A stretch of 64,000 nucleotides of DNA from a virus (taxonomy: Duplodnaviria > Heunggongvirae > Uroviricota > Caudoviricetes), in IMG/VR virus record IMGVR_UViG_3300025602_000002, positions 38,718 through 102,717 of that record, one strand, 5' to 3'. The position numbers and the translations under genes are program-made. The notes beneath the pieces are model-generated. The model worked only from the letters and a program-made list of their open reading frames with translations. It did not search any database and was not told the origin of the DNA. Every line of letters starts with the position of its first letter. Within the stretch, counting starts at the first letter, position 1. Shown one piece after another: positions 31,023 to 58,180 of this stretch.

Positions 31023-31051
31023 TATTAGTTGATATTTACCTTAATAATTGT

Positions 31052-31060
31052 TATATTTAA
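31052..31060 (+). promoter_or_regulatory. Candidate phage late promoter TATATTTAA
   Basis: TTGTTATATTTAA in the intergenic gap before the lysis/portal block. Confidence 0.5.
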
Positions 31061-31097
31061 TAAAGAAAGATTATACAAACCAATAAAATAAAGTATT

Positions 31098-31289
31098 ATG
31101 GATTTAAAAGATAAAAGAGAGAAGTTAATTGAGGAAAATTTAAAACGAGAACATCTTGTTGATAATTTAAATGAGCAAATAACTAATATACAAACTCAAA
31201 TTGTTTTAGAAAAAGAGGCTCACGACTATACTAGAGGTCAAATAGAGTTATTGGATAAATTACTTAAGGAAAGTACGGAGGATAAATAA
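31098..31289 (+). CDS. Small coiled-coil protein
   Basis: 63 aa, heptad-like, coupled to the holin. Confidence 0.6.
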   Translation: MDLKDKREKLIEENLKREHLVDNLNEQITNIQTQIVLEKEAHDYTRGQIELLDKLLKESTEDK

Positions 31290-31696
31290 TGTCTGTTTTA
31301 AGCAAAGCTTTAGGATCTGTTTTAGGCAAGTCAGGGGTTGGCGAAATTTTAGGCAAGGGTGCTGATATTGTAGGAGAATACATATTAAGTGCTGATGAAA
31401 AAGCTGATATGCAAAAGTGGTTGGATGCTGGTCAAATGAAAATTAATTTGGCTGAAGCTTCTCATAAATCTATATTTGTAGCAGGTTGGCGCCCATTCAT
31501 AGGCTGGGTGTGTGTCTTTGGCTTAGGGTATCAATATGTATTTGCTCCTATTTTGGGAGCTATACTTGCACTGTTCGGCTCTGTAGCTATTTTACCTGTA
31601 TTAGATATGGCAGTATTATTTCCTTTAGTAACTAGTTTACTAGGTATTGGTGGAATGAGAAGCTGGGAAAAATGGAAAGGAGTTAACACTAAATAA
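31289..31696 (+). CDS. Holin (3TM, GTA-type)
   Basis: FVAGWRPFIGWVC...LLGIGGMRSWEKWKG signature; hydrophobic helices; near the amidase. Confidence 0.85.
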   Translation: MSVLSKALGSVLGKSGVGEILGKGADIVGEYILSADEKADMQKWLDAGQMKINLAEASHKSIFVAGWRPFIGWVCVFGLGYQYVFAPILGAILALFGSVAILPVLDMAVLFPLVTSLLGIGGMRSWEKWKGVNTK

Positions 31697-31926
31697 TGAG
31701 TACTCTTCTCGAAGGGCATATAGACCCAATTGCGGGATCAAATAATTTTTCAATACAAATAAATGATCATATTGCGAAAACTACTTATATTTTAGATGAG
31801 ACTGTAGAAAGTAGAAAAGAGGGGGAGCTTGTAATTAAAAGAGAACTCTCAAAGTTAGCGAAGAAACATGAAGATAAACTATTTCCCAGTTATATACCTA
31901 TGAGTATGAGTTGTAAAAGCTTATAA
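31696..31926 (+). CDS. Hypothetical protein
   Basis: 76-aa ORF with TAATG coupling. Confidence 0.55.
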   Translation: MSTLLEGHIDPIAGSNNFSIQINDHIAKTTYILDETVESRKEGELVIKRELSKLAKKHEDKLFPSYIPMSMSCKSL

Positions 31927-31932
31927 AAGTAT

Positions 31933-32029
31933 GGGTGCGTATTCCCATTTGGTTTATGGGAACGGTCTTCAAAACCGTATGCCGGGGTCCAAGCCGGTTA
32001 TGAGGGTTCGACTCCTTCCGTGCCTGCCA
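31933..32029 (+). tRNA. tRNA with UCA anticodon (opal suppressor / Sec-like), 97 nt
   Basis: Acceptor GGGTGCG/CGTGCCT, long D stem TTCCCAT/ATGGGAA, anticodon arm ACGGT-CTTCAAA-ACCGT (TCA at 31969-31971), 23-nt variable arm, T arm GAGGG-TTCGACT-CCTTC, G73, encoded CCA. Confidence 0.9.
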
Positions 32030-32063
32030 ATTTTAAATTAAATTAAACCAAAATAAAAAAAAC

Positions 32064-32636
32064 ATGTGGAATATTTGCAATATATTTACTAAATTCAAAA
32101 AAGAGGAAGAAATTCCATTAGAAATAAAAGATATGACTAGTGTCCTGCCCTGGCATGAAACTAGGGTATGGGCTAATAGAGCTTTTAATAGGATTAATAA
32201 AATAATTATACATCAAGCGTTAGTGTCTGGTGCTACAGCAGAGTCTGTTAATAACTATCATATTACTCCAGGAGAAAATAATCATATTTCACCTAATGGG
32301 GCCCCTCACATTTGTTATCATTATGTTATAGAGAAAGACGGCTCAGTGTTGCTTTGTAATAACTTAAGTAGTATTGTTTGGCACTGTAAAGGCCAAAATA
32401 CTTCTTCTATAGGTATTCTAGTTATGGGAGATTTTAACGGTGTAGATCATTCAGGAATGGACTCTCACCCTACTAAAGAGCAATTGCATAGTTTAAAACA
32501 ACTATTAAATACTCTTTTAAAAAATGAAAAACTAGACTTAGATGAAACAGAAATTTATGGACATGATTCTTTTGGCAAGCCAGCTTGCCCTGGATATATC
32601 CTAATCAACTTTATAAAAAACTTTATTTTTTCTTAG
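32064..32636 (+). CDS. Endolysin, N-acetylmuramoyl-L-alanine amidase (Amidase_2)
   Basis: IIIHQA, ICYHYVIEKDG, WHCKGQNTSSIGI, YGH...KPACPG. Confidence 0.9.
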   Translation: MWNICNIFTKFKKEEEIPLEIKDMTSVLPWHETRVWANRAFNRINKIIIHQALVSGATAESVNNYHITPGENNHISPNGAPHICYHYVIEKDGSVLLCNNLSSIVWHCKGQNTSSIGILVMGDFNGVDHSGMDSHPTKEQLHSLKQLLNTLLKNEKLDLDETEIYGHDSFGKPACPGYILINFIKNFIFS

Positions 32637-32648
32637 GAGACACTAAAA

Positions 32649-33719
32649 ATGAAAAAATTAATGAGCAGAAGCTTAGACGTAACAGATTTTATTCTTAACG
32701 AAGACTTACAAAAATTAGCTGAAGTAGTAGAGGAATTATCTGACTCTGTTAAGACAGCTCATGTACAATCACTTGAAGAACTTGGAGCGTTATCCGAATC
32801 CAATGTAGCTTTAATTTTGTGGCATCCCAGTCATGGGAAATTGCAAAAATTTGCTACTACTACCCCAGAACTTGTAGAAATTAATATGGCTTTCTTAGAT
32901 GAGGAGAAAAACTCGTTACCAGAAGAAGTCGTAAAAATTGCAGCTACTAACTTGACATGTGCCGCTTTTAATTATGGTATACAAGTTCCTGAGGGTTTAA
33001 AAAATTATCATTCTGATAAATTTGTTCCAAACACTTTAGATATTCGTACTATTAATGAAAAAGCTTTTGTAGAAAAAACTAGCGAAGTAGTTGAATCAAT
33101 TGAAAAGTATGCGTGGGCTGAAGAAAAAAAATATCCCTTACATACCGAGTTAGCTGTAAAAAAAGCAGCATCTTATTTTGATACACATCATCAAAAAATG
33201 GACACAGTTAAGAAAATAGAATTTATAAATAATACTATGGAAGCTGCCCAAGATATAGATATTGAACTTAGTGGTACTGCTATTCAAAAATATTCAGAAT
33301 TACGAGATGAATTTAATGAGGACTTTTTTAATTTAATACAAGTTAGGAAAGGATTTATTGGCGAATCTGACACAGCTAGCCACTCATTATATGATGATTT
33401 AATAAAACAAGCTGATGACCTTGGAGCCATTAAGACTGCCGAAGCTTTATATAAGATTGATGAGAAGGTAGGATTACTAGGAAGGTATGGGCATGGAGTA
33501 GAAGACCCGATGGTTACTACTATGGCCTTTACTAAGGAAGCCTCCAGAGTAATAGACGGAGTGACAGTTACGAGAGAAAAATTAGCTAATGTCCCAGATA
33601 TGGATTTAGCTGCTGTTGTTGGTAATGGGGTTGTTTCCGAATTACGAGGTGAAGAAGCTTTAGATATTTTAGAATCATTACCTACCCCTATTAAAAAAGA
33701 CGTAATCAATTTATTATAA
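32649..33719 (+). CDS. Hypothetical acidic protein (possibly head-associated)
   Basis: 356-aa ORF with AGGAG RBS; many K-x-A motifs. Confidence 0.7.
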   Translation: MKKLMSRSLDVTDFILNEDLQKLAEVVEELSDSVKTAHVQSLEELGALSESNVALILWHPSHGKLQKFATTTPELVEINMAFLDEEKNSLPEEVVKIAATNLTCAAFNYGIQVPEGLKNYHSDKFVPNTLDIRTINEKAFVEKTSEVVESIEKYAWAEEKKYPLHTELAVKKAASYFDTHHQKMDTVKKIEFINNTMEAAQDIDIELSGTAIQKYSELRDEFNEDFFNLIQVRKGFIGESDTASHSLYDDLIKQADDLGAIKTAEALYKIDEKVGLLGRYGHGVEDPMVTTMAFTKEASRVIDGVTVTREKLANVPDMDLAAVVGNGVVSELRGEEALDILESLPTPIKKDVINLL

Positions 33720-34027
33720 TGGAAATAATTATTTTAGCCGGAGCCGTATTCATACATGCGGCCGTTTCTCTATATCAAGCTTTTGTTATTAAAAATAAAA
33801 AAATTAATATTAAGAATGATAAATATATACAATATGGTTTAACAGACGAAGGGCCTATACGGGGAAAGCTTAAATCAAAACCAGCAGAGTATATACCTGC
33901 TGAACAATTTGAAGTACCTATAGAAGAGGTTGATGGTAAAATTATGTTTGATTATGAAGTAGGGGCTTCAAACTTAGCAAAAAGTATAGATGATGAAATA
34001 ATTAATAATGCAGGGAGCTTAAACTAA
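33719..34027 (+). CDS. Small protein with N-terminal TM helix
   Basis: MEIIILAGAVFIHAAVSLYQAFV; coupled upstream of the actin-like gene. Confidence 0.65.
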   Translation: MEIIILAGAVFIHAAVSLYQAFVIKNKKINIKNDKYIQYGLTDEGPIRGKLKSKPAEYIPAEQFEVPIEEVDGKIMFDYEVGASNLAKSIDDEIINNAGSLN

Positions 34028-35007
34028 TGAAAGGATTGGATTGTGGAACTGGTAATTTTGTAGCTGTAGATGAAAACGGTATGCGTTTACAACGTAATGC
34101 TTTTTTAACTATTGATAAAACTACTACTACTACTAGACAGCTAAATTTATTAAAAGTACCATACGTTGAAATTAATAATAGATTGCATATTATAGGTAAG
34201 AAAGCGTACGAATATGCCCAAGTTTTTGGTAATAAAGAATTAAGTAGGCCTATGTCTCAAGGGTTATTAAACCCTACAGAACAGGATGCTTTTCCAGTAT
34301 TAAGGGAAATTATATTAGGGTTAGTAGGGAAAGCAGAAAAAGAAAAAGAACGCATAGTATATTGTGTTCCTGGAAAACCTATAGATAAAGTCCAAGAAGT
34401 TAACTATCATGAAGATGTTTTAAAACAAATAATTGATTCTTTAGGATATGAAGCTAGAGCTATAAATGAAGCAATAGCTTTAGGATTAGCTGGATTACAA
34501 ACTGCGGGGTTAACTGGTATTTCTATTTCGATGGGGGCTGGTATGTGTAATTTAGCTATTATGTATGCGGGGATGTCTACCTTAGAGTTTAGCGTAGCTA
34601 AATCGGGAGATTGGATCGATGAAAATGTAGCAAGAGATTGTGGCATTTCCTCAGCTAAAGCTCAGTATATTAAAGAAGCTGGAGACTACACTATAGCCCC
34701 TACTTCCGACGTAGAGCGCACTAGAGAGCAACAAGCTGTAAAAACTTATTATGAAGCTATGGTACGGTACTTACTATCTAATATAGCAAATCAATTTGCA
34801 TCTACAAGTATGCCTAATTTCCCAGACGCAGTTCCCATAATTATTGGTGGAGGGTCTTCAATGGTTAATGGGTTTATCGATGTATTTAAGGACCAATTTC
34901 AACAAAAACAATTTCCACTAGAGATTAGTGAGATAAAATTAGTAGACGAACCACTTACTGCTGTAGCACGAGGATGCTACGTAGAAGCTCAGTTAGAGGA
35001 GAATTAA
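34027..35007 (+). CDS. Actin-like ATPase, Salactin/volactin-like
   Basis: GLDCGTGN (phosphate 1), INEA (connect 1), ISMGAGMCN (phosphate 2), SGDWIDE...KE, IIIGGGSS (adenosine). Confidence 0.85.
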   Translation: MKGLDCGTGNFVAVDENGMRLQRNAFLTIDKTTTTTRQLNLLKVPYVEINNRLHIIGKKAYEYAQVFGNKELSRPMSQGLLNPTEQDAFPVLREIILGLVGKAEKEKERIVYCVPGKPIDKVQEVNYHEDVLKQIIDSLGYEARAINEAIALGLAGLQTAGLTGISISMGAGMCNLAIMYAGMSTLEFSVAKSGDWIDENVARDCGISSAKAQYIKEAGDYTIAPTSDVERTREQQAVKTYYEAMVRYLLSNIANQFASTSMPNFPDAVPIIIGGGSSMVNGFIDVFKDQFQQKQFPLEISEIKLVDEPLTAVARGCYVEAQLEEN

Positions 35008-35008
35008 A

Positions 35009-35287
35009 ATGGATAAAGCAGAATATGTATTTGAAAAATACGCAGTAATGAAGGTTCCCAATTGGGCAAAACCTTTTGCTAAAAATAAAAATAAAATATT
35101 ACATATTACCAAGCAACCTAAAGATTATAATTTAAAGATTAAGCTTCGAATGTTACAAGGTGGCAGATTAGATTCTTATTTATATAAAAATAAAGCTGCA
35201 TTAAATAACCCAAAGGGTGGTTTATTTAAAGATATAGTAAAACCTAAATGGCGTGAAAGCATCTGGAGAAAACCACTCAAAAAATAA
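35009..35287 (+). CDS. Hypothetical basic protein
   Basis: 92-aa ORF in the operon. Confidence 0.55.
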   Translation: MDKAEYVFEKYAVMKVPNWAKPFAKNKNKILHITKQPKDYNLKIKLRMLQGGRLDSYLYKNKAALNNPKGGLFKDIVKPKWRESIWRKPLKK

Positions 35288-35288
35288 A

Positions 35289-35765
35289 ATGTTAATAGAA
35301 GACTTACTAAAAATACCAGGCGTAATAGAGCCGGAAACTTTACATAAGCTTTTTCCTAAATTAAATAATTTAGAAAGACAGCAAGTGTTAGTAATAAAGC
35401 TTTTAAGGGAAACTAGACAGGCTTACGAAGACATGGATGTCTTTGAGAACGTATGTTTAGTACTTAATGGTATTAACCCGGATGTAGGTAAAACAGAAGG
35501 ATGCCTTCCTGAATTTATTTGGAAGGCTTTGGATATCATACAAAATATGCATCCTAATTTAGAACTTAGTTTTGAAGTGACTCAATATATTAAATTTATG
35601 TTTATAGATAATGGATATACCTTTTTCCACCCATTCGCTAATATAGACGATTCTATGCTTGACGTAGTAAAAGATAAAGCAGGCAGCGGGCCTTTTCCTC
35701 TTGAAGAGGATAGGTTGGGTATACAGGCTGCAAAATATTTAAAAATCATGGAGTACATTAAATAA
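35289..35765 (+). CDS. Hypothetical protein
   Basis: ATG 35289 preferred over track start 35253; coupled to the portal. Confidence 0.65.
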   Translation: MLIEDLLKIPGVIEPETLHKLFPKLNNLERQQVLVIKLLRETRQAYEDMDVFENVCLVLNGINPDVGKTEGCLPEFIWKALDIIQNMHPNLELSFEVTQYIKFMFIDNGYTFFHPFANIDDSMLDVVKDKAGSGPFPLEEDRLGIQAAKYLKIMEYIK

Positions 35766-37630
35766 TGCCAGTACGTTACTTAACAGAAAACGACATAGAT
35801 GAATATAAAGGTAAGAAGTACCCTAATCCATTTTTTGATTTATCACAGAATTTTTTACCAAGAAATATAAAAACGTTATTTAAGTTCTGTAAAACTTTTT
35901 ATTATACTAATGAAATTTTACGAAATGTTATTAGTAAGATGACTGAGTATCCTATAACGGATATTATATATGACACCTCTATTGAACCAGATATAAAAGA
36001 GCTATATGCTAAAGCGTTTAAAAAAGAAATACGCTTAAAGAATTTATTAATTGAAATTGGTTTAGATTACTATACTTATGGTAACTGTTTTGTATCTGCC
36101 TTTCTAAAGCAAAAGAGATTTTTAGCTTGTAATGTTTGTGGTACAGAGGCAGAAATAGCTTCTATGCGTGGGGTAAAATTAAAGAAATTTGTATTCCAGG
36201 CTATCTGTGAAAAGTGTGGGCACGAAACTCCAATGAATATTAAGGATGAACCTTTAACTACAATTAGTAGTTTAAAATTCGTTAGATGGTCTCCTGAAAA
36301 TATTGATATAGACTATAACCCTATATCAGGTAATGCTCGTTATTATTATGCAATGCCTAATAAGATTAAGCAAGGAATTTTAGTAGGGAACATGGCCATA
36401 CTAGAAGATATACCTGCAGTCTTCTTAGAAGCTTTAAAGAAAAAGAAAAAAATTATGTTAGATAACAATAATTTATATCATTTTAAAGCTCCTACTTTAG
36501 CAGAGGAAGATATGGGATGGGGCAAACCTCGTATATTAGCCGCTCTTAGACTAATTTATTACCAACAAACTTTAAAACGTGGTAATGAAGCGATAGCTAA
36601 TGACCATATTGTACCTAAAAAATTAATATCGCCAGCTAATACAGGCGCTATGGATCCTTATTCTATGATGAACTTAGGGAAATGGCGCGCTAATATTGAA
36701 GAGCAAGTTAAAAAATGGAGAAGCGACCCTAACCATGTAGGTATTTTTCCTATTCCAGTTCAATATCAAGAGCTTGGTGGAAATGCTAGATCTCTATTAT
36801 TAACTCCTGAAATGAAATTTTTAGAAGAAAACGTTATTAACAGTATTGGAGTTCCTGTAGAATTTATTAAAGGTGGAACTTCGTGGACTGGTTCTTCTAT
36901 TTCATTACGTATTGTAGAAAATGGATTCCTAACTTATAGAGAAGATATGTTAGATTTCATTAATTATTTTGTTATCGATAAGATAGTTACCTTATTAAAA
37001 TACCCTTCAATCGAAATTCAATTGAAGAAATTTAAGATGAGTGATGACTCTCAATCTAAACAATTATCATTACAATTAAATGAATTAGGAGCTTTATCTG
37101 CGTCTACACTTCTTCAAGACTTTGGTTATTCCGCTGTCGAAGAAGAGATATCTAATACTAAAGAAAATAGCGCAATGATTGATCAAGGAATTAAAAAAGC
37201 TATTAGAGAAGCCGAGGCTCAAGGCCAAGCTACTGTGATAATGACTAGGTATCAAGCTAGAGCGCAAAAAGCTGCTGAAGACGAGCTATTAAGATTAAGA
37301 GCTGAAGTTTTTGAAAAAGAACTTATGGAAGAAAATGCAGGCTCCCCAATTGACCCATATGAAGTTATAGAAAAATATGCTAAAACCCTAATGTTCTTTG
37401 GGCCAGAGGAACAAACTCAGGCTATACAGGAAATTAGTAAAACTGCACCAGTAACTGCAAACTTAGTTATGGAGCGTTTAAATTATTATATGCAAGCAGC
37501 AGAGGTTTCTGAAATTGGCGCCCAGGGAACTCAAACAGAGCCCAATCAAAAAACGCCTGGACAGCGTAATAGTAATAAGGTAAAAACTGGCCCGGAAAAA
37601 ACTAAAGGACAAACCAGAGGAACGCCTTAA
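35765..37630 (+). CDS. Portal protein with Zn-ribbon insertion
   Basis: YPNPFFDL N-terminus, VISKMTEYP, GxP.EF...G, CxxC...CxxC insertion; 621 aa. Confidence 0.7.
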   Translation: MPVRYLTENDIDEYKGKKYPNPFFDLSQNFLPRNIKTLFKFCKTFYYTNEILRNVISKMTEYPITDIIYDTSIEPDIKELYAKAFKKEIRLKNLLIEIGLDYYTYGNCFVSAFLKQKRFLACNVCGTEAEIASMRGVKLKKFVFQAICEKCGHETPMNIKDEPLTTISSLKFVRWSPENIDIDYNPISGNARYYYAMPNKIKQGILVGNMAILEDIPAVFLEALKKKKKIMLDNNNLYHFKAPTLAEEDMGWGKPRILAALRLIYYQQTLKRGNEAIANDHIVPKKLISPANTGAMDPYSMMNLGKWRANIEEQVKKWRSDPNHVGIFPIPVQYQELGGNARSLLLTPEMKFLEENVINSIGVPVEFIKGGTSWTGSSISLRIVENGFLTYREDMLDFINYFVIDKIVTLLKYPSIEIQLKKFKMSDDSQSKQLSLQLNELGALSASTLLQDFGYSAVEEEISNTKENSAMIDQGIKKAIREAEAQGQATVIMTRYQARAQKAAEDELLRLRAEVFEKELMEENAGSPIDPYEVIEKYAKTLMFFGPEEQTQAIQEISKTAPVTANLVMERLNYYMQAAEVSEIGAQGTQTEPNQKTPGQRNSNKVKTGPEKTKGQTRGTP

Positions 37631-37637
37631 GGAGAAT

Positions 37638-37829
37638 ATGATGGAAAAATATGGAACATACGAAGTTTTTAGAAACATAAAAACTAATGAAATAAAAAGA
37701 ATCCCTTATGAGGAAACTACTGATTTAGAAAAATTAGCAGAAGATGGTTGGGAACATTTAGACCATGACCCCCAAGATATGGGGATAGAAGATTTAGCAG
37801 CCAATGATCGTAAAAGATGGGGTGGCTAA
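37638..37829 (+). CDS. Hypothetical protein
   Basis: 63-aa ORF with AGGAG RBS. Confidence 0.55.
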   Translation: MMEKYGTYEVFRNIKTNEIKRIPYEETTDLEKLAEDGWEHLDHDPQDMGIEDLAANDRKRWGG

Positions 37830-38029
37830 TGGTTAGTTTTTTTGGAAAGAAAAAAGTAGGCACTTTTCGCCTTAACTATGAGTCTGAAAAGGCTGAATAC
37901 GAGGATATTATAAATAACCCTCGTTACTTAGTGGAAGATAGATTCACTGAGTTTACTTACGATAAATTTGGTAAGCCTATTATCACAATTTGATATTTTG
38001 ATTCAGTAATAGATGAGGCCCTCGAATAG
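37829..38029 (+). CDS. Hypothetical protein, 66 aa, 1 in-frame TGA
   Basis: TAATG-coupled start; ...KPIITI(TGA 37991)YFDSVIDEALE-TAG. Confidence 0.5.
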
Positions 38030-38043
38030 AGGGTCTTTTTTTT
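38017..38043 (+). terminator. Rho-independent terminator
   Basis: GGCCCTC-gaata-GAGGGTC followed by T8, between convergent operons. Confidence 0.75.
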
Positions 38044-38752
38044 ATCCTAGAAATTTATAAGAGTGCCCATCTAAATTAGGCGATAGGAAGGGATTTAAGC
38101 TCATTATATTAATATATGCACCATAGGCACCCCTTATACGTTTAACAGTGTCTAGCCCTATGTTTTCGTTGTTCTTCATCCATTTTACATAAGAGTCTTT
38201 GCTACCATAACGTTTATAGTCTTTATAATTCAATTTTCCATCTATACTGCCCAAATCATGGCCCACTAAAATAATATTATGAGCTCCCAAGTGAGCGGCT
38301 AAATGCATTGCTGTATGAGTACTACATTTAGTTATAGTTAGATATTCCTTATTAGTCCAATCTAGCTTTTTATTATTTACTCCTACATTATGTTGGTGTT
38401 TATAATAAAATAGCCTGTTGTACCTTTTTTCCTTAAATTCGGGAAATAGCTGCTCTTCTAATTTAACAAAAGATTTTGCAGTCTTCATCCCGCCCGCATG
38501 CTCAGGAATTATTAATTTTGGCCAGTCGTATAAACCAGACCCGGCTTCCTCAATTAGTTCTGAATTATAATCTTGCATAACTATATAATCGCATATGTCT
38601 ATAGTTCCGTAAGCCTTGTATGAAGCGTTTACACTTATGACAATTTTATCATTAAGGAATTGAGATTGTAGGTAATCAGCGGAAGGCCCTGAACATAATA
38701 TGTATATGTCTGAAGCTGCCTGCATACCTGATAATTTTTTAATATTTTTCAC
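38042..38752 (-). CDS. DUF115 / MptE-like (Maf-type) glycosyltransferase-like protein
   Basis: ILCSGPSA...ISVN, HLAAHLGAHNIILVGHD. Confidence 0.75.
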   Translation of the reverse strand: MKNIKKLSGMQAASDIYILCSGPSADYLQSQFLNDKIVISVNASYKAYGTIDICDYIVMQDYNSELIEEAGSGLYDWPKLIIPEHAGGMKTAKSFVKLEEQLFPEFKEKRYNRLFYYKHQHNVGVNNKKLDWTNKEYLTITKCSTHTAMHLAAHLGAHNIILVGHDLGSIDGKLNYKDYKRYGSKDSYVKWMKNNENIGLDTVKRIRGAYGAYINIMSLNPFLSPNLDGHSYKFLG

Positions 38753-40610
38753 TAGTCTTAAAAGTATGTCCTTCTAGGTTAAAGTTTATGAATGGATTCA
38801 AAGATGTAATATTTACACCATAATGTTTTATTAATTTTTCTTTTAAATTAAGAGTATGAGCTTCTATTGTTTTTAACCAATTAAGATACTTTTCATTAGT
38901 TCTTACTGACTCACCCCTTTTGGAAGTATTATATTCTTTTATTTCTGTAACTTCGTCTAAGGTACCACAATCATGGCCCACTAAAATAATATTTTTAGCA
39001 CCCATATAAGCCGCCAAGTGTATAGCTGTAGTGATAGTAGACTGGCTAACTATTAGTTTATCTAAGTTAAAGTCAAACTCTTCTGGGATTTCTATATTAT
39101 TTTCATTATGGAAATACCTAATTGAGTTTTCTAAATCTATTTGATTAAGTGGATGTCTAGAATGGCCTTCTCTAAAATTAGAGAATAATAAAGTTGCGTT
39201 AGTTTTTTCTGCATAATCTATGACTTCCGGATTAGGATCCTTTATTACTATATATTCTGGATTATCTATAGCATAAGCTGATTGGTTAACACAGATAGTA
39301 GTTTTATTATTAAAAAATTCTTTATCTATATATTCTACAGAAGCTCCGGAACCTAAAACCCAAACATCTTGATTCTTTTTTATATTCTTTAATTTGCATA
39401 ATTCTACAGGCGATTTCTCTAATGCTTTATCGCTAAAATAATTATGATAATTAGTTATATAAGGTTTATAGGTATAAAAATCTTTATGCCCACTTTCCAA
39501 AAATCGATCAAAATACCACCCATTCTGTAGGTATTTATGAGAAATACATTTTTCAAAATAAGCAATAAATTTCGGGTATACAGATTCTAAACTAAAATGT
39601 TTAATAGCCCAATCTCTACAATCTTGTGGGTCTATATCTTTAATATTTCTTATAGCATAAGTAAAATCTTCCCAGGTTCTTCCTCTAAAGCCTACAACTC
39701 CATGAGGAACTGTTTCTGTATAAACTCCCCAATCCGTGGTTACTACAGGCGTCCCAGACATTAGGCTTTCTATGTGCACGTTGCCAAACGGCTCTACATA
39801 TTTACTTAAACAAAAAGTAAGGGTTGCGTTAGCTAATAATTCTTTTTTTCTATCTCCAGCAGCAACGCCTACATATTTAATTAAACCTTCCTTATCTTTT
39901 AGTTTAGAAGAATCCCCATTGCCGGCCACATATAGTGTAGTTTTAAAATGTTTAGCCAATTGCACCGCTACATTCATCCCTTTAGCGTCTCCTAACCTTC
40001 CTAAGAAAAGAAAATAATCTTCTTTCTTCTTTTTAAATTCAAAATTTTTAGGATCAGTATACCCAGGAATAACTGAATGAAACCATTTGTTGGTGTCTAT
40101 ATACCCATTAACTCCATAGTAAGTATTCATCCAGGCGTTACTTTCAAAACATAAGTAGTCGGCAAAAGTAGATAAATAGCCTATACCATATTCTATGGTA
40201 GCTCCTATAGCTTTTAATTCTCCTAATTTTGGAGACCAATTTCCATATCCCACTAAAATAACGTCAGTTAAAATATCTTTAAAATTTTCTTTAACTTCTT
40301 CAATTAGTGTAGCTTCCGCATGTTTATATAACTTTGATTCGGGTTTATATAAATGGTCTTCAAAGGAAGTATTTGGATCTCTATTTTCACAATGTGTTTT
40401 CCACATCTCTTTTGAAATGTATTCTATATTTTTAGTACAAATCATTTCATTCCCCTCTACTCCATAATATATTACCTCGTGACCCTCTTCAGTAAACTTT
40501 TTACATAGAAGATACATTTTAGTAACGTAAGGATCTGTAGTTATATGTGGATCATTTATAATAACATTTTGATGCGGAGCACCAATCATATGTATTCTTA
40601 TTTTATTCAT
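38739..40610 (-). CDS. GT4-family glycosyltransferase fused to a DUF115-like domain
   Basis: FLFLGRL...KG, EPFGNVHIESLMSGTPVVTTD; C-terminal VLGSGAS...HLAAYMGAKNIILVGHD. Confidence 0.85.
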   Translation of the reverse strand: MNKIRIHMIGAPHQNVIINDPHITTDPYVTKMYLLCKKFTEEGHEVIYYGVEGNEMICTKNIEYISKEMWKTHCENRDPNTSFEDHLYKPESKLYKHAEATLIEEVKENFKDILTDVILVGYGNWSPKLGELKAIGATIEYGIGYLSTFADYLCFESNAWMNTYYGVNGYIDTNKWFHSVIPGYTDPKNFEFKKKKEDYFLFLGRLGDAKGMNVAVQLAKHFKTTLYVAGNGDSSKLKDKEGLIKYVGVAAGDRKKELLANATLTFCLSKYVEPFGNVHIESLMSGTPVVTTDWGVYTETVPHGVVGFRGRTWEDFTYAIRNIKDIDPQDCRDWAIKHFSLESVYPKFIAYFEKCISHKYLQNGWYFDRFLESGHKDFYTYKPYITNYHNYFSDKALEKSPVELCKLKNIKKNQDVWVLGSGASVEYIDKEFFNNKTTICVNQSAYAIDNPEYIVIKDPNPEVIDYAEKTNATLLFSNFREGHSRHPLNQIDLENSIRYFHNENNIEIPEEFDFNLDKLIVSQSTITTAIHLAAYMGAKNIILVGHDCGTLDEVTEIKEYNTSKRGESVRTNEKYLNWLKTIEAHTLNLKEKLIKHYGVNITSLNPFINFNLEGHTFKTSEKY

Positions 40611-40611
40611 T

Positions 40612-41454
40612 TTAATATTGTGAGTAAATTGTGGTATAAATATCGATCCAGTAATTAACTATGCCCTGAGGACCCCAATACTGCTCTGCCCAAGTTCTAT
40701 TTTTTGCACCTTCTATTAAAACTTCTTGTAATTGGTTAGTTACTACAAGATTTTCTAAAAAGTTTTCTAAGTCCTTTATATAGACATTTCGTATAGGATT
40801 AGTTGACGCCCCGGAGATCTTTAATAAATTATTAGAAATCTGGGACGACATAGAACATATTACTAATTTTCCTAAACCTAATCCCTCAAAACTAGACATG
40901 TGAAAGCTATCAGTGACACATTCGTCAATAATAATATTGCAATTAGCTTTTCTAGACATACATTCCTCAAAGGATACGTTATATATAATATCAAAATCAA
41001 AGTCTTCGGGAAATTTTTCTTTAAGTTTTTTAAGTACAGCCGTTGTAACTTTAACTCCTTTATCGTAAGTATCTACTCCTTCTAAAGTGCTAGGTGAATA
41101 CCCTACTTTTATTCTAGAATCTATTATTTTTTGACTATAAAGCTGTTTATCTTCTAAATCCATAAACATCCATTTACTAGGCATACAATCTTGATATTCT
41201 GGTAAAGTGGCATGGTATTGGGGGTTAACTACTTTAAAGCCTTTATAATTTAAAAGCACTCTCCAAGGTTCACTGTGATAGTGCATTAACGACGGAGTTC
41301 TAGTAAATACAAAATTATTATTAAAGTGTACAAAGTCCCCTATACTTGTATTTTGGCTAACTACTGCTCGATGCTCTGAATACTTATTTATACCAGAAGC
41401 TAAATGATCTGGACATTGTGCCAAATTTGTTGTCTTATAGAGACAAATATTCAT
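40612..41454 (-). CDS. Glycosyltransferase-like protein (GT-B)
   Basis: IIIDECV...FHMSSFEGLGLGKLVI resembles the GT-B C-terminal motif; operon context. Confidence 0.6.
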   Translation of the reverse strand: MNICLYKTTNLAQCPDHLASGINKYSEHRAVVSQNTSIGDFVHFNNNFVFTRTPSLMHYHSEPWRVLLNYKGFKVVNPQYHATLPEYQDCMPSKWMFMDLEDKQLYSQKIIDSRIKVGYSPSTLEGVDTYDKGVKVTTAVLKKLKEKFPEDFDFDIIYNVSFEECMSRKANCNIIIDECVTDSFHMSSFEGLGLGKLVICSMSSQISNNLLKISGASTNPIRNVYIKDLENFLENLVVTNQLQEVLIEGAKNRTWAEQYWGPQGIVNYWIDIYTTIYSQY

Positions 41455-43794
41455 CTAAACTTCTTTTAAAATTTTGAGTAAAGCTTCTCTTTTATCTTCC
41501 CATCTGAATTTAGTTTCAACATTCTTAATACACTCTAGATTAATATCCTTTTCTTTGTCGGATTCTTTCCATTTTTTGTATTCAATATCTAAAGCTTTCA
41601 TCATTTCAAAAGGGTCTACCACTGGGCGTAAATGCCCATTATCCATAGACATATTAAATATTGCTAAATTAGGTACTATATGCCCCGTGTCTCCTAACAT
41701 TTCAGGAATAGCGCTATTTTTTGGGGCTATACTTGGAGTACCTGTTGCTGCCGCTTCAATTAATGATAAACCACAATTATGGACAGTTACTTGAGCGCAG
41801 GTATATGATTCTCCATTAGGTACTTCTAAATCATAGCCTAAAAATTTAGGACTATTTGAAAATTCATCTGAAGAACTTATACTCTCAATAGGTAAATACA
41901 CAAACTCTTTATCCATCTCTATATTAGAATGAGAAGTTTGGTCAAACACTAACGTTATGATGTATTTGTAATTCTCTTCCCTAATAAAGCTTAATAGCCC
42001 TGTACTCAAATATAAGTCTCTTAACAAGTATGCAAACTCTTCAGACTTAACTTCATATGATAAAGTATTTTGTCCGTGAATTACATCAGACATTATACCA
42101 TTTAGTAACTCTCCCCTTAATTCTTTATCTAATGCTAAAAAATATGTAGGAATAGTTCTTTCTGATGCTTTTTCTCCAAATAGATGTCTAAATAATTTTA
42201 ATAAAGGTTTTGCTGCTATTCTAACATAGCCAGCTTGATCAGAATATGTACCATCATATGAACCTTCTACATTAAAATATTTATTAAATATATAATCAAC
42301 ATACTCAAATAATTCTGCTTTTCTATGTTTAAAATTAAACATTATACCTCTATCTGTTACATGCCCACATCCTAAGAAAATTCCAAAAAACTTTAAAATC
42401 TCCGCATTTATTGGTATGAACCTTTGCAAACTACTTCTTCGTTGTTTACTATTTATTTGGGTATCTGTTATTTCATAGTTAGGGTGTGGAAGTCCCATAT
42501 CTGCTAAGTCTATTTGTGTTGGAATTTTATTTTTCCATTTAGGACGTCGTAAAGCTACTATGTCTCCGACGTTCAATAGTTCCGCACGCTTATAACTTTT
42601 ATCTTTTAATAAAAAAGGATGATCGTGAGAACAAAGAATTGGTTTTGAAAACACATCCATAGTTATGGAATATATTTTTCCATCAAAAGGAGTTCCTAAT
42701 GTTTTCTTTACTTTCGACCAATTACCCTCGTCATTTATTACTTCATCTTCAGGGGTAACATGCTCTATTCGTTTATACCCATCTCTACATAAAATTAAGG
42801 TGCCTTCGTTTAGTTTTCCTTCCCCTATTGTAGAAGATATATTAATATTTGAGGCATTATAAATTTTGTTAATTTCTGAAGAAGGTACTTCACCGCTGTA
42901 TATATTCCTAGCATTTACTCCTAGTATAGTATCGTCCCCATCAGTGTCGCTATCTACAAATCCAGCATTTAATAAGTGATTCTGTAATAAGTTTGCGGCT
43001 CCTGGCCCCATAGTCATTTCTGCTGACATCATATGTAAATACAAATAAACGTCCCGTCTATTCCTTTTAACTACTTCTACAATATCACTTTCAGGACACA
43101 TATTTAAATCGCATTTTTTACGATTAATAGGCATATGATTTCCACATTTACAAACTTTGTACCCTTTTGCAAACATACTGAAGGCTCGTGCAGTTCCGGG
43201 TATAAACTTCCGTGGTTGAAATCTATTAACATTACAAACAGCAAACTTATTTGCCCATTTATAGTCTTTTCTTATTTCTTGGATTTTATCGTAAGGTAGT
43301 GGATAAAAAGTAGTTTCGTTTACACCATGGTATAATTTGTGTATAGGTATTTTGATCTCGTAAGTATCTTTTAAAATTTCAATTGCCCAATCTGTGTAAG
43401 CTACTACTGCTGAGGAATGCTCAAATATTTTCTGCCATCCCACGCTAGGAGGTGTACCGTCTATAGGGAAATAAGATACTATCTTAGTATTTGGTAATAC
43501 TTTTTTTAATTCGGGAATGATTTCTGAAATATGGAAGATATCTTGAAATAAGAATATTACGTCAGGCTTTTCTGCTTGTGCAAGGGCACACAGTTTCTGG
43601 CCGCCCAGGGGATCTTCTTTAGTTACAGGGTATACGAAATATTTAGAAGTATCGTATTTAGTATTTCCAAAGTAGTTTATACCTAGTATAGATACTTCAT
43701 AATAATTGTGTAAATCTTTAAATAAGTTTTCAGCTACTATTCCGAACCCCGTCGGTACTAAAAAATCACTCCAGATAAATAATTTAGGTTTCAT
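41455..43794 (-). CDS. GT4-family glycosyltransferase containing an intein
   Basis: TGFGIVA, NVNRFQPRK; extein STIGEG|CGLSLIEAAATGTP restores the EGxGLxxxEA motif. Confidence 0.85.
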   Translation of the reverse strand: MKPKLFIWSDFLVPTGFGIVAENLFKDLHNYYEVSILGINYFGNTKYDTSKYFVYPVTKEDPLGGQKLCALAQAEKPDVIFLFQDIFHISEIIPELKKVLPNTKIVSYFPIDGTPPSVGWQKIFEHSSAVVAYTDWAIEILKDTYEIKIPIHKLYHGVNETTFYPLPYDKIQEIRKDYKWANKFAVCNVNRFQPRKFIPGTARAFSMFAKGYKVCKCGNHMPINRKKCDLNMCPESDIVEVVKRNRRDVYLYLHMMSAEMTMGPGAANLLQNHLLNAGFVDSDTDGDDTILGVNARNIYSGEVPSSEINKIYNASNINISSTIGEGKLNEGTLILCRDGYKRIEHVTPEDEVINDEGNWSKVKKTLGTPFDGKIYSITMDVFSKPILCSHDHPFLLKDKSYKRAELLNVGDIVALRRPKWKNKIPTQIDLADMGLPHPNYEITDTQINSKQRRSSLQRFIPINAEILKFFGIFLGCGHVTDRGIMFNFKHRKAELFEYVDYIFNKYFNVEGSYDGTYSDQAGYVRIAAKPLLKLFRHLFGEKASERTIPTYFLALDKELRGELLNGIMSDVIHGQNTLSYEVKSEEFAYLLRDLYLSTGLLSFIREENYKYIITLVFDQTSHSNIEMDKEFVYLPIESISSSDEFSNSPKFLGYDLEVPNGESYTCAQVTVHNCGLSLIEAAATGTPSIAPKNSAIPEMLGDTGHIVPNLAIFNMSMDNGHLRPVVDPFEMMKALDIEYKKWKESDKEKDINLECIKNVETKFRWEDKREALLKILKEV
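41776..42816 (-). mobile_element. Intein (347 aa) with degenerate LAGLIDADG endonuclease and Lys as first residue
   Basis: Starts KLNEGTLILCRDGYKRI, block B CSHDHPF, ends YDLEV...TVHN/C. Confidence 0.85.
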
Positions 43795-43819: not shown

Positions 43820-43828
43820 TTAAATATA
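43820..43828 (-). promoter_or_regulatory. Candidate phage late promoter TATATTTAA
   Basis: TTGTTTATATTTAA 26 nt upstream of the GT operon ATG. Confidence 0.5.
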
Positions 43829-43843
43829 AACAATTTTTAAGAT

Positions 43844-43879
43844 AAAAAAAAGGACCGATCCGAAAATCGGACCCTTTTT
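43844..43879 (-). terminator. Terminator-like hairpin (possibly bidirectional)
   Basis: CCGAT/ATCGG stem with T8 on the minus strand and T5 on the plus strand. Confidence 0.6.
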
Positions 43880-46488: not shown

Positions 46489-46638
46489 TATTAACTGTCA
46501 CTTGAGTTGTCGCTAGGTTCTTCGGTTGTCAAATCAATAACTTTGGTTTCTGCTAATAGGATTGCAATTTTTGCAAAAGCTATTATTAGCATCAGTCCAA
46601 TTGTTTTGCCTAGCTTGACGTCCATTTCTTTTAGTGCC

Positions 46639-47529
46639 TCATACTACATTCATTTTAGCTATTTCATCTATAAATTTTTGCCCTTGTTCAGGATTTAAAA
46701 ATCTAATCCATTCGGCATAACCTCTTAATTGCTGGTATTCCCTTTCTGTTATGTCGACGTTTCGTTTTTGATGTAAAATAGCTCTAAATATTTTTCGTTT
46801 ATATTTTGGAATACCGTATTTGTCGTTTATTACGATTCCAGTTACTGACATCCGTCTATGCGGCCTCATAATTCTAGTCTTTTTGTAATTTAGTTTAAAA
46901 TGATATTTTTGTACCATTTTGGTAATTTCTATTATATGATCCAAAAGCGGATAGCGTTTGGAGAGATGACTAAAACTAATATCGTCAGCGTATCTAGTAA
47001 CTATTAGTTTATTTTGTTTTGCAAAGTCTTGTAAATCTATATCCATTTTGTAACATACTAAATTAGCCATAGCCGGACTCGTAGGAGATCCTTGCGGTAA
47101 TGCCCCATTTAGCGTAATTAAAGACGTAAGTAGTCTTGCGTCTGCTTCATCCCATTCAAGGGTGTGTTGGTTATTATAACTATGAAGCCTCTTAATCATT
47201 TCAGGTAAAACCATGCTAGCTGTTACAGAATCGAAAAAACCTCTTAAATCTATATTTAATAAAGTCTTATTTCCAAAATGTCGTTTAGCACCTTCTTTTA
47301 CGCTGATATTACGTCTAAACCCTACCGCTATCGGGTGGGTCTTAAATTTATATAAGAAATTATTTAAAAACTTTGTTTGAACTTGTTTTAAAGCCTCAGA
47401 CGGCTCATTAAGCCACCTTAATTTTCCAGACTTTTTTGTAATCGGGAACCTTCTATACTGCTTTATTTTAGTAGTTACTAATTGTTCTATTTCAGTTTTT
47501 GGTGTTTCTATTAATTCGTAAATTGTCAT
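46639..47529 (-). CDS. Retron-type reverse transcriptase
   Basis: KKSGKLRW...P, GFRRN...GAKRH (region X-like), IDLRGFFDSV, LPQGSPTSP, TRYADDISFS, VTG (region Y). Ends at TGA. Confidence 0.85.
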   Translation of the reverse strand: MTIYELIETPKTEIEQLVTTKIKQYRRFPITKKSGKLRWLNEPSEALKQVQTKFLNNFLYKFKTHPIAVGFRRNISVKEGAKRHFGNKTLLNIDLRGFFDSVTASMVLPEMIKRLHSYNNQHTLEWDEADARLLTSLITLNGALPQGSPTSPAMANLVCYKMDIDLQDFAKQNKLIVTRYADDISFSHLSKRYPLLDHIIEITKMVQKYHFKLNYKKTRIMRPHRRMSVTGIVINDKYGIPKYKRKIFRAILHQKRNVDITEREYQQLRGYAEWIRFLNPEQGQKFIDEIAKMNVV

Positions 47530-47858
47530 TTGTTAAAAAGATTATATTGCCTTAATAAAGCGTCTGCGTCCTCTTCAAGAGATACACAATACTTACTAAG
47601 AACTTCTAGTAAATCATTTTCTGTTATCATACTGGAGGGGGTAAGTCCTAAATGTATAATTTTTAATTCTGGAACATTGCTATGAAATGTATAAAATATA
47701 GTATAAACCATATTAAATGCATTCTTTTTCACTGCAATATCTATTTTTGTTATAAATTTAGTATTTAAATGTACACAGGCCCCGTCCTTAGTTAGATTCG
47801 GTAGATGAGGACTTATCTTCTCCATCATTTGAATCTTTAATTGTTTCGTTGTCTTCAT
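47526..47858 (-). CDS. Hypothetical protein upstream of the RT
   Basis: 110 aa; TGA stop overlaps the RT ATG (ATGA). Confidence 0.6.
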   Translation of the reverse strand: MKTTKQLKIQMMEKISPHLPNLTKDGACVHLNTKFITKIDIAVKKNAFNMVYTIFYTFHSNVPELKIIHLGLTPSSMITENDLLEVLSKYCVSLEEDADALLRQYNLFNK

Positions 47859-48012: not shown

Positions 48013-48193
48013 ATAGCGTGTATTTTTTTTATTTTATTTAGTCTTTTGGTGGAGTAAATATTTCGTCATTTGCGTTCTCATTCTCTCCATCTGTAATTCT
48101 TTTTCTTGCATTAAAAAATATCAAGCTCTTGAATATATAAATTGGGATGAACATTTTGCTCAAACCTCCCTTGACTCTTAACCTACTTTGCTT

Positions 48194-48202
48194 TATATTT
48201 AA
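48194..48202 (+). promoter_or_regulatory. Candidate phage promoter TATATTTAA upstream of the RNAP gene
   Basis: TTGCTTTATATTTAA 68 nt before ATG 48270. Confidence 0.45.
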
Positions 48203-48269: not shown

Positions 48270-51200
48270 ATGGCAGATTTATTAAATTACAACAAACAGA
48301 ACTCAAATATCCAACAGGCTATCCTAAAGTCTATAAATAACGTTTTTCCAGTCACCGCCGGTGATAGAACTCTAGAAATAGCTAATTTAAAAATAGTTGA
48401 CAATCTTAGTTCTGACGATTTCCCTAAACAGAAAGAGTTAAAAATCAATAGGCGTAGCTGACAAATACCTTTATACGCTGATATACTTTTAAAAGATAGC
48501 ACTGGAAAAGTTATTAACCAAAAAAAGAATGCTAAGATAGGAAATATCCCTAAATTAACAAATAGGTTTACTACTATTATTGAAGGAAATGAATACCAAA
48601 CCGTTAATCAACTTCGAAGAAAGCCGGGTATATATGCTCGTATTAAGAAGAATGGTGAGTTAGAAAATGAATTCAATTTAGAAAAAGGTCTTAATTTTAA
48701 AATGCAATTAGATCCTATTTCTGAAAAATTTGTAGTTATTTTCGATAATAGAAAATATAGACTCTGAACTTTATTAAATTTATTAGGTGTAGGCGATGAG
48801 GCTATGCGTAAGGTTTGGGGTACCAAACTATTAGAAGTTAATAAGAAGAATGCTCTCAACACAGAAATTTCTGAAATGACTTCTATTTTCACTAAAATTT
48901 ATCATAGAGATCCTAAAGACTACTCAGAAGTTCTTACCAAATTAAAAGACTATTTTGAAAACTTCACTAAAGTAGACCCCAACACTACCCTCTTAACTTT
49001 GGGTCGAAAACACTCTAATGTTAATGGACAAGCTTTACTAGACTCTTCTAAGAAATTATTAGATATTAATAAAGGTACAGCAGAACCAGATGACAGAGAT
49101 AGTTTAGTTTTTAAACAAATTTTATCAGTAGATGACTTACTTATTAATCATTTTGATAAACAAAAAGACTCTCTTACTAAAAAATTACGATCATCTATGA
49201 TGTTCAAAGATCAAGTACGAGAAATAGTAAGTGCTGGTACTTTTTCAAAACCTATTAAACTATTTTTTACTACTGGCGATTTAAGCTCAACTCCTCCACA
49301 AACAAATCCTGTAGCTATTGTATCCGAATGAAGAAAAACCTCTCCTATGGGTACTGGTGGAATAAAAAGTAAGCACTCAATTACTGAAGAAACTAGGGAT
49401 GTACAGCCTACACACTTAGGGTTTATAGACTCTACAGCTTCTCCAGAAGGTTCAAAAATTGGAGTAACTTTAGGAATGACCTCTGAGGTTGTTAAAGAAG
49501 GTAATGAGCTGAAATCTCCAGTATATAATACTTCTGGTAAACTAGTATATATTAGTCCTTTAGAATTCTTTGAAAGTTATGTAGTGTACCCAGATCAATA
49601 TGAAATATCTGGCTCTACTATTACTCCTAAATTTAAGTCAATACACGCAATGTATAAGGGTGAACTTATACGTATTGCCCCAAGTAAGGCTAATTATTAT
49701 ATAAGGTCTCCAAGATCAATGTTTTCTTTTGCCGCTAATGCTATTCCATTTTTAGACGCAGTTCAGGGTAATAGAAGTGCTACTGGTGCTCGTATGATGA
49801 CTCAAGCTATGGCTTTAGATAATAAAGAAGCTCCTTTAGTACAAACCTATAGAGATAAAGATTCTACTTATGAAAAGATTCTTGGTAATTTTCTTAATCC
49901 AGTATACGGACCTAATTTAAAAGGGAAACCTCGTACTGGAACAGTTAGTAAAATTACTAAAGATTATATTTATATCATTGGAAAAGATGGATCTAAAACT
50001 AAAAAAGGTTTATATAACAATTTCCCATTAAATCAAGATGGTTATTTAGATTCTACTCCTTTAGTAAACGTGGGAGATGAGGTTAATAGTAAAACTATAT
50101 TAGCTGAAAATAATTATTCCAGTGGAGATACCCTGTCTATAGGAAAAAATTTAACTACAGCCTATATGACTTATAAGGGTTATAATTATGAAGATGGCGC
50201 TGTAATTACAGAATCAGCTGCTAATAAACTTTCTCATTCTATGCTCCATAAAGTAAATGTATTTTTTACTCCTAAATTATCTGCATTTAGTTTAGAAAAA
50301 TTTAGTGCCTGGTACCCAGACGCTATAACCCCAGATAATAGAAAAAAATTAGATAGCTCTGGTATTATTAAGGTAGGAGAAACAGTTAATCCAGAAGATG
50401 TATTAATTGCATTTTTAGTTAAGCGTGAAATGGACGACCATGAGGTAGCTTTACATAAATTAAGTAAATATACTTTTGGACAATTTAATAAAAATTTAAC
50501 TGAATGGTCTGAAGATGAGCCGGGAGTGGTAACTGATGTAGTTAAGACTGGTAGAAACATAGATATTTATGTTAAATCTACCCATCCTTTTAAAGAAGGT
50601 GATAAACTTTCTGGGCGTTATGGTAATAAATCTATTGTTACTAAAATTATTCCAGACGCAGATGCCCCTCATAGAGAGGATGGTACCCCTATTGACATAA
50701 TGTTAAATGCTCATGGAGTTCCTTCTCGTATGAACATTGGTCAAATTTTAGAGACGGCAGCTGGTAAAATTGCTAAAAAAACTGGTAAACCTTATATTGT
50801 TAAGAATTTTAATAATCCAGAAGGTGACAGATCTGCAGAAGTTTTAGCAGAAATGAAAGAACTTGGTATAGAACCTGATGAAACTTTAACAGATGGTAAA
50901 ACTGGCAAAGCTTTTGATAATCAAATTTTTGTAGGACAACAGTATTTTTTCAAACTTCGACATATAGTCAACAAAAAATTAGGGGCTCATGGTATCGGCC
51001 AATATGATATAGACGAACAGCCTGTAGGAAAGGGTTCACAGCATGTAGGGATTTTAGATAATTATGCATATCTGGCCCACGGAGCAAAAGCCAATTTACG
51101 AGATATTGGAGAGATTAAAGGAAGGTCTAACGATGAATACTGAAGAGACCTACAATTGGGACTGCCGCCTAGTAAGCCTTCTAGAAACTTTGTATTTGAA

Positions 51201-58145: not shown

Positions 58146-58180
58146 AATTTGTTTTTTTCCTTATTTGGTTAATTCGGGTG

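Follow-up and report, generated by a model that had tools for sequence, protein, structure and literature searches.

This report concerns a suppressor tRNA, and the operon that carries it, in the partly recoded genome of a large tailed phage (Caudoviricetes). The window, meaning the whole stretch of DNA that was analysed, is 64,000 nucleotides (nt) long and corresponds to G000:C1:38718-102717 of the 205,518-bp virus record IMGVR_UViG_3300025602_000002; coordinates refer to the window unless preceded by the word genome. Our data show that TGA stands for tryptophan in the rightward structural genes and in the operon of the phage RNA polymerase (RNAP), and that the operon bearing the sole tRNA with a UCA anticodon found in the genome uses only TGG between positions 31098 and 37829. 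This partition is real in this genome, where the tRNA-bearing operon avoids TGA. Comparison with related phages indicates that the system has no conserved need for such avoidance, and we consider the phage probably to represent late-gene TGA-to-Trp (code 4) recoding of a known kind, apparently caught at an intermediate stage, in which the accumulation of TGA is gene-specific and variable between lineages.

TGA use differs between operons

The record has a GC content of 35.9%, a completeness of 97% (CheckV), 29 tRNA genes and one transfer-messenger RNA (tmRNA), and about 92% of the genome is coding under code 4. Tryptophan codons were recounted under this code in the units listed below. The simple open reading frame (ORF) caller that was used produced some antisense false ORFs and N-terminal over-extensions, which were left out of the counts.

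6198-31022, plus strand, tail/baseplate/fibre operon, heavily recoded: 63 TGA / 35 TGG
31098-37829, plus strand, tRNA block of 11 tightly packed co-directional ORFs: 0 TGA / 23 TGG
38042-43794, minus strand, glycosyltransferase (GT) operon: 0 TGA / 26 TGG
48270-54329, plus strand, RNAP gene: 5 TGA / 9 TGG
54333-54824, plus strand, ORF of 163 amino acids (aa): 1 TGA / 2 TGG
54834-55556, plus strand, PhoH-like ATPase: 1 TGA / 1 TGG

The recount equals the hand count behind the original prediction, which had reported 23 tryptophan codons in the tRNA block, all of them TGG, beside a tail operon rich in TGA and a GT operon with 26 tryptophan codons that are likewise TGG only. The Fisher test of TGA use per operon that was proposed at the time is significant, with p = 2.6e-9 for the tRNA block against the tail block and p = 0.0019 against the RNAP operon (7 TGA / 12 TGG). 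Expressed as TGA/(TGA+TGG), the values are 0.64 for the tail block, 0.37 for the RNAP operon and 0.00 for both the tRNA block and the GT operon, compared to a neutral expectation of about 0.75 (range 0.72-0.92). Because the other two-fold codon pairs ending in A or G are A-ending in 72-92% of cases in all four blocks, the deficit of TGA is specific to this codon and is not an effect of composition. The head genes are also poor in TGA, the major head protein having none and the protease one, and TerL has 3 TGA and 8 TGG. The tail block has PHROG matches to a baseplate wedge and to a collagen-like tail fibre.

That TGA is read as tryptophan follows from its position at TGG columns in RNAP and from the interchange of TGA and TGG among relatives at conserved tryptophan columns in alignments of the tail fibre, the portal and the amidase; in conserved genes the in-frame TGA codons align with tryptophan of homologues. 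Recoding is limited to part of the genome, and the early and replication genes use the standard code. Internal TGA is absent from the leftward early and middle genes except for one leftward recoded block (genome ~21-31.6 kb), outside of which it is found only at the start of over-extended calls or in the last few codons. For at least 11 leftward standard-code genes TGA is apparently the genuine stop, and a TAA or TAG follows in frame a few to about 40 codons downstream, for example:

window 46513-47529 and 47511-47858, minus strand, leftward genes with an apparent TGA stop
genome 8497-9219, 122697-123485, 128352-129452, 137886-138245, 159592-160203 and 170003-170278, minus strand, leftward genes with an apparent TGA stop

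The reverse transcriptase (RT) at 46513-47529 has its TGA at codon 297 and the RTs of relatives are 297-304 aa long; therefore the RT and its upstream ORF are not recoded genes. The apparent TGA stops of early genes fit a standard-code host, which they do not prove. Genes ending in this way would gain short C-terminal extensions after tRNA(UCA) appears.

The tRNA-bearing operon

The tRNA(UCA) gene lies inside the lysis cassette, in a unit with the following layout.

31098-31926, plus strand, 63-aa coiled-coil-like ORF, holin with three transmembrane segments (31289-31696) and 76-aa ORF (31696-31926): no TGA
31289-31696, plus strand, holin (PF11351, 50.8 bits): 0 TGA / 5 TGG
31933-32029, plus strand, tRNA(UCA), between the holin and amidase genes
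32064-32636, plus strand, N-acetylmuramoyl-L-alanine amidase (endolysin; PF01510, 70.7 bits): 0 TGA / 4 TGG
32649-35765, plus strand, five ORFs, namely 356 aa, 102 aa, actin-like (34027-35007), 92 aa and 170 aa: no TGA
34027-35007, plus strand, actin-like protein (Volactin PF25216, 237.7 bits)
35765-37829, plus strand, portal protein (621 aa, 0 TGA / 5 TGG) and 63-aa ORF (0 TGA / 2 TGG)
37817-38029, plus strand, last small ORF of the unit, 70 aa, just beyond the block end: 1 TGA / 1 TGG
38015-38037, strong hairpin and T-run terminator, common to the tRNA block and the convergent GT operon

The names previously given to these genes can be kept, the holin, amidase and actin-like protein being clear by Pfam and the portal being named from a weak match to PHROG 16240 (E 9e-9). 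The description of the block as UGA-free is accurate for the span 31098-37829 and too broad for the transcription unit, which also includes the small ORF at 37817-38029 with its single TGA. A terminator scan found no terminator between the tail operon and the tRNA block. Of the proteins of the block, the actin-like one is the best conserved, with 75% identity to its counterpart in the related genome G002, and it is without TGA in every relative examined. Preferential recoding of lysis genes, which has been reported for crAss-like and Agate phages, is not seen in this genome; the earlier claim that the lysis genes are not recoded is thus correct here, but it describes a peculiarity of this genome, as the amidase contains TGA in five of the six recoded lineages having an ortholog.

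tRNA(UCA) is a predicted opal suppressor derived from tRNA-Trp

The UCA anticodon of the tRNA was confirmed. The gene starts 7 bases after the 76-aa ORF and ends 34 bases before the amidase gene, and with flanking gaps of this size it lacks the intergenic room for a promoter of its own. Its D stem is extended, its variable arm is long, and the terminal CCA is encoded in the gene. Within the genome it is nearest to the phage tRNA-Trp(CCA), with which it has the acceptor stem, anticodon arm and T arm in common. Among nine homologues from related phages (L002:5903-5999, L044:5835-5930, L045:3834-3933, L055:5751-5848, L058:4882-4976, L059:4027-4121, L062:5931-6027 and L096:5629-5721 being the copies in relatives), CUUCAAA in the anticodon loop and G73 never vary, G2-C71 and G3-C70 as well as the variable-arm loop UCCAAA are kept in seven, and the 1-72 pair is A-U or G-U; compensatory changes occur at 11 of 17 pairs. 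The conserved features fit predicted charging by tryptophanyl-tRNA synthetase (TrpRS), the E. coli tRNA-Trp identity set being the first three acceptor pairs and G73. Neither a phage TrpRS, nor a release factor, nor a second tRNA(UCA) was found in this genome. On these sequence grounds tRNA(UCA) is identified as an opal suppressor derived from tRNA-Trp and as the putative decoding agent for TGA.

The Rfam tRNA-Sec model (RF01852) gives this tRNA 48.5 bits, above its cut-off of 47. As the phage tRNA-Ser(UGA) scores higher on the same model (50.3 bits), the match reflects only the long variable arm. The fold and the family alignment show 7 acceptor pairs and 5 T-arm pairs, not the 13-bp acceptor+T helix (8/5 or 9/4). 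Decoding of TGA as selenocysteine or serine is rejected, given that a tRNA-Ser passes the same model, that TGA falls at invariant tryptophan columns and that the tRNA is nearest to tRNA-Trp; the TGA codons are also far too numerous, and too consistently at tryptophan sites, for a tRNA-Sec. Standard tools handle this tRNA poorly, since ARAGORN misses the copy in L002/L003 and Rfam labels tRNA(UCA) as tRNA-Sec. No comparable type-II-like tRNA-Trp was found in the literature searched.

The tRNA-bearing operon in related phages

Relatives were collected as 79 loci retrieved from IMG/VR by portal profile. The low-GC relatives include standard-code as well as recoded members. tRNA(UCA) lies between holin and amidase in L002, L003, L044, L045, L046, L055, L058, L059, L062 and L096, that is, in all recoded relatives found, and the standard-code relatives have no tRNA at this site. 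The block is usually poor in TGA in the recoded relatives, where TGA makes up about 1 of 20 tryptophan codons in G002 and 1 of 14 in L055. In L058 and L062, about 70% of the tryptophan codons of the block are TGA, at conserved tryptophan columns, with TGA/TGG ratios of 4/1 and 3/2 in the portal and 4/0 and 3/0 in the amidase, respectively. Because the tRNA operon is as recoded as the tail genes in these two phages, a UGA-free tRNA operon cannot be regarded as a necessary element of a circuit. The leftward genes are free of TGA even in the heavily recoded L062.

On the portal tree, recoded and standard-code lineages are intermixed and at least four changes are forced; this is a quick tree, and several short loci were not scorable for recoding. 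L055 and L058 are sisters on it, yet their portal genes contain 0 and 4 TGA codons.

RNA polymerase is recoded and sigma factor is not

The RNAP is a fused cell-type beta-beta' enzyme of 2019 aa (Rpb2_6 at 219.6 bits plus Rpb1 domains), and its best match among the cultured phages of INPHARED is 29% identical. No second RNAP gene and no second Rpb1 match were found in the genome. Its five TGA codons are at positions 64, 166, 354, 958 and 1989; the first four fall on invariant tryptophan columns where five relatives or more have TGG, and opposite codon 1989 the alignment has tyrosine. The assertion that full-length RNAP needs UGA decoding is therefore well founded, the first TGA being as early as codon 64. 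In relatives the RNAP gene has 3 TGA codons in G006, 4 in G007, 1 in G008, 11 in G010, 2 in G011 and at least 1 in G012, and the G002 gene has none in the aligned segments and one in the whole ORF. Of the seven recoded relative lineages checked, six have a recoded RNAP, and most of the sites are lineage-specific. RNAP open frames of 2357-2456 aa in the relatives L012, L013/L015 and L119/L122 suggest inteins. The enzyme is without the N-terminal tag (MDKAQ.. type) of the putative head cargo encoded at genome 172.9-182.7 kb, which says little either way, and packaging of RNAP in the virion has no positive support. In the PhoH-like ATPase downstream, TGA falls on the conserved phenylalanine of a G-F-L-P-G motif.

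The ORF at 54333-54824 had been called a sigma factor that cannot be made full length without readthrough. It does contain one TGA, at a column of tryptophan or other aromatic residues, but its identity as a sigma factor is rejected, as neither Pfam nor PHROG gives a match at E up to 0.1 and the ORF does not resemble the true sigma. An AlphaFold model built from five sequences consists mostly of beta strands over residues 1-100 (pLDDT, the model's per-residue confidence, ~80), and a comparison with the PDB gave no significant match and no sigma among the matches. In all relatives checked, a counterpart of this conserved 163-aa protein is encoded after RNAP; the N-terminal domain is rich in beta strands and the tail is disordered, with a C-terminal S-E-x-P-[IV]-Y in three of five homologues. 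With no known family or fold match, it may be an RNAP accessory factor. The true sigma-70 family gene is outside the window at genome 7697-8512 on the minus strand (L037:7697-8509), beside the family-A DNA polymerase (PolA). It matches Sigma70_r2 (60.8 bits) and r4 (55.2 bits) above their cut-offs and r3 at 23.3 bits against a cut-off of 25.3, and it has no TGA and 3 TGG.

Promoter-like motifs are shared beyond the tRNA and RNAP units

Two sigma-70-like promoter candidates are of particular relevance:

31029-31060, plus strand, candidate promoter of the tRNA block: TTGATA, 17 nt, TG-extended TATATT, then TAA; top match of the promoter scan
48171-48202, plus strand, candidate promoter of RNAP: TTGACT, 17 nt, TATATT, then TAA

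The pattern TTGA[CT][AT]-N16-18-TATATT has nine sites in the genome, six of which, including those at 31029 and 48171, lie within the ~8% of the DNA that is intergenic. Of the 20 genome occurrences of the extended motif TATATTTAA, 10 are intergenic. A motif common to the tRNA block and the RNAP gene, as originally noted, is indeed present, but it is not exclusive to them: TATATTTAA also stands upstream of the TGA-rich tail operon (5374), of the TGA-free GT operon (43828, minus strand) and of other leftward TGA-free units. Because the same motif heads a TGA-rich operon as well as TGA-free leftward operons, it ties no private loop between tRNA and RNAP. An equivalent motif heads the block in relatives, and the RNAP motif is kept in recoded and standard-code relatives alike. 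To judge by its letters, TTGAYW-N17-TATATTTAA looks like an ordinary -35/-10 promoter and carries no mark of a private tRNA-RNAP regulon.

The GT promoter region (43820-43850, minus strand) and that of the tRNA block (31035-31065, plus strand) are nearly identical over about 27 nt (CTTAA.AATTGTT.ATATTTAATAAAG). The near-identical promoters of the TGA-free GT operon and the tRNA block may form a promoter sub-class, which with two members is unproven.

A second motif, GGTATAAGA, is often directly 3' of a terminator, where it heads leftward small genes. A promoter-like (T/G)GGTATAAGAA has about 16 intergenic copies, all but one on the minus strand (for example window 5328 and 48249, both minus strand, and genome 147-173 kb), often immediately after a hairpin and T-run (TTTTTTTACCTTAA). 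In almost every relative the DNA upstream of RNAP has kept the reverse complement of this motif, TTCTTATACC, directed at the RT operon.

Late-gene recoding as the probable explanation of the partition

Partial recoding of stop codons is believed to set the timing of late phage functions. In the explanation that we favour, host TrpRS would charge a tRNA(UCA) excised from the polycistronic transcript. Translation could start at once for genes free of TGA, and genes with TGA (tail, terminase and RNAP operon) would wait until the tRNA outcompetes release factor 2 (RF2). The tail genes would then have come close to the mutational expectation and the RNAP operon halfway to it, with the tRNA operon and the head genes at or near zero. 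The UGA-free state of the operon in this phage would be lineage-specific, arising from selection against TGA (for the onset of the late phase or for high-yield translation) or from limited time. As RNAP has gained TGA repeatedly, its synthesis must normally follow expression of the tRNA, from which it follows that the tRNA operon is first transcribed by host RNAP (perhaps together with the phage sigma, which has no TGA) or by RNAP delivered with the virion. RNAP may alternatively be an enzyme made late and perhaps packaged, as in crAss-like phages. It acts like a late gene that freely accepts TGA, and this is hard to reconcile with a need for newly made RNAP to express the tRNA.

Several points weigh against this explanation. 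The value of 0 in 23 for the block, where about 0.75 is expected, amounts to strong and specific avoidance. Most relatives (G002, L055, L045 and L072) are also TGA-poor in the block, and a functional constraint tied to the operon is likely. No second tRNA(UCA) was found in the available parts of the L058 and L062 contigs, which are partial, and a second, earlier-expressed copy elsewhere in these two genomes is possible. Finally, we infer the timing classes, the use of promoters and the polymerase acting at each promoter.

The original prediction was of a positive-feedback switch, in which phage RNAP reads the promoters of its own gene and, as the loop demands, of the tRNA operon, while translation of RNAP needs the tRNA. 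Once primed by host RNAP, by packaged RNAP or by leaky readthrough, each would raise the level of the other, and the operon would be UGA-free so that the loop can start. Its foundations are partly sound: full-length RNAP cannot be made without UGA decoding, the sole tRNA(UCA) is located in a TGA-free unit, and TTGAYW-N17-TATATTTAA occurs in both units. In addition, a phage with its own beta-beta' enzyme and sigma plausibly uses them at late promoters, and recoding of RNAP recurs among the relatives. Other parts have failed, as the supposed sigma is not one and the real sigma is without TGA, the motif also precedes the tail, GT and other TGA-free leftward operons, and it is also kept ahead of RNAP where relatives use the standard code and lack the tRNA. 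The heavily recoded blocks of L058 and L062 show that a UGA-free tRNA operon is unnecessary, and the largely lineage-specific gains of TGA in RNAP run against the selection that should hold the gene TGA-free if it were needed for the tRNA. We therefore regard the switch as unlikely. The broader proposal, that the code change gates the phage transcription machinery, with tRNA(UCA) allowing RNAP to be made and RNAP driving the promoters of the tRNA operon, its own gene and the structural operons, strikes us as equally doubtful. If it were true, tRNA and RNAP would form a self-reinforcing commitment to the late phase, and the recoding of RNAP in nearly all recoded relatives would be selected rather than the product of drift.

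A translational timer would make the partition an adaptive order of assembly. The TGA-free late genes (portal, protease, major head, actin-like and lysis) would be translated first for procapsids, while terminase, tails and RNAP (the last for packaging or late use) would be delayed until the co-transcribed tRNA builds up. The late genes that are free of or poor in TGA are indeed the procapsid genes and the tRNA block, terminase and tail genes are recoded, and the ranking of tail above RNAP above block recurs in G002, G006/L055 and G007/L044, the head genes having been checked in G002 only. The order vanishes in L058 and L062, however, there is no obvious gain from translating holin and endolysin early, and the amidase is recoded in most relatives, so that we give a timer only a small chance of being correct.

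Least probable, and in our view very improbable, is that all or part of the block was imported from a standard-code relative too recently to have gained TGA: the interspersed lineages and the forced changes on the portal tree, the sharp difference in portal TGA content between sister lineages and the mosaic nature of these phages (inteins and GT genes are on different strands in G002) would agree with recombination, but the block holds the very tRNA that is missing from this site in standard-code relatives, the portal relatives, all at most 57% identical, yielded no close donor, the other codon pairs of the block match the rest of the genome, and several relatives show the same TGA-poor block.

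Relation to known recoded and jumbo phages

Borges et al. (10.1101/2021.08.26.457843) described code-4 gut phages of the Agate and Jade clades with standard-code early genes and recoded structural and lysis genes, the Jade phages having a standard-code "code-change operon" beside the lysis cassette. The phage studied here resembles them in its partly recoded genome, its phage-encoded tRNA(UCA), its low GC content and the close relationship of recoded and standard-code members (10.1101/2021.08.26.457843). It differs in that its holin and amidase are without TGA, the lysis genes being the class with most recoding in that study (10.1101/2021.08.26.457843), and in that its tRNA is inside the lysis cassette and neither a phage TrpRS nor a release factor 1 (RF1) was found in it. 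It also belongs to another family, of jumbo phages that are apparently aquatic, and encodes an RNAP and a sigma of its own.

In crAss-like phages, stop codons are reassigned in late genes including those for RNAP subunits (Yutin et al. 2021, PMC7886860). Reassigned stops in a phage RNAP along with TerL and portal, switches of code over short phylogenetic distances and patchy detection of suppressor tRNAs are common ground between that group and the present family (PMC7886860). The crAss RNAP, however, is a single-chain, very divergent enzyme and has been shown to be a virion protein transcribing early genes (PMC7886860), in contrast to the cell-type beta-beta' fusion found here. Jumbo phages of the PhiKZ/AR9 type have virion and non-virion multisubunit RNAPs, and PhiKZ-type phages are reported to be without a sigma factor (PMC7598289, PMC7824862). 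As in these phages, a large genome is combined with a multisubunit-type RNAP of its own, and a packaged RNAP made late would explain the late-gene behaviour of the RNAP gene. The present phage differs in having one RNAP gene, fused and not split, a sigma-70 family factor and sigma-70-like promoters; the two split beta/beta' sets and the lack of a sigma that mark the PhiKZ type are not found. Overall, the phage is a further case of Borges-type recoding, distinct in its unrecoded lysis genes, its recoded cell-type RNAP and its atypical suppressor tRNA.

Other features of the genome

A tRNA with anticodon CUA is present on the minus strand at genome 105393-105469 and also in G002 (115365-115439, minus strand); despite this conserved CUA tRNA, TAG remains the stop codon in about one gene in five. 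The tmRNA (58178-58551, minus strand; Rfam 85.3 bits) has the tag GRPAVKLAA, and its G002 counterpart has GKTQFALAA. The 779-aa GT protein at 41455-43794 on the minus strand contains an intein-like insert (Intein_splicing at 33 bits, just below the cut-off), and its orthologues are about 430 aa long.

Implications

A family with standard-code, lightly recoded and heavily recoded members in the same gene order can serve as a natural series. The series shows TGA being accepted in the tails first, in RNAP and terminase later, and in the head genes and the tRNA's own operon last. The fact that this operon can itself be recoded limits models that require the code-change device to be kept in standard code. 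A tRNA-Trp(UCA) with a long variable arm, missed or mislabelled by standard tools, may help to explain recoded phages that seem to be without a suppressor. The recoding of phage RNAP is extended here from the crAss-like phages to a cell-type beta-beta' enzyme, and this fused enzyme together with a sigma-70 factor constitutes a transcription set unlike that of the PhiKZ-type jumbo phages.

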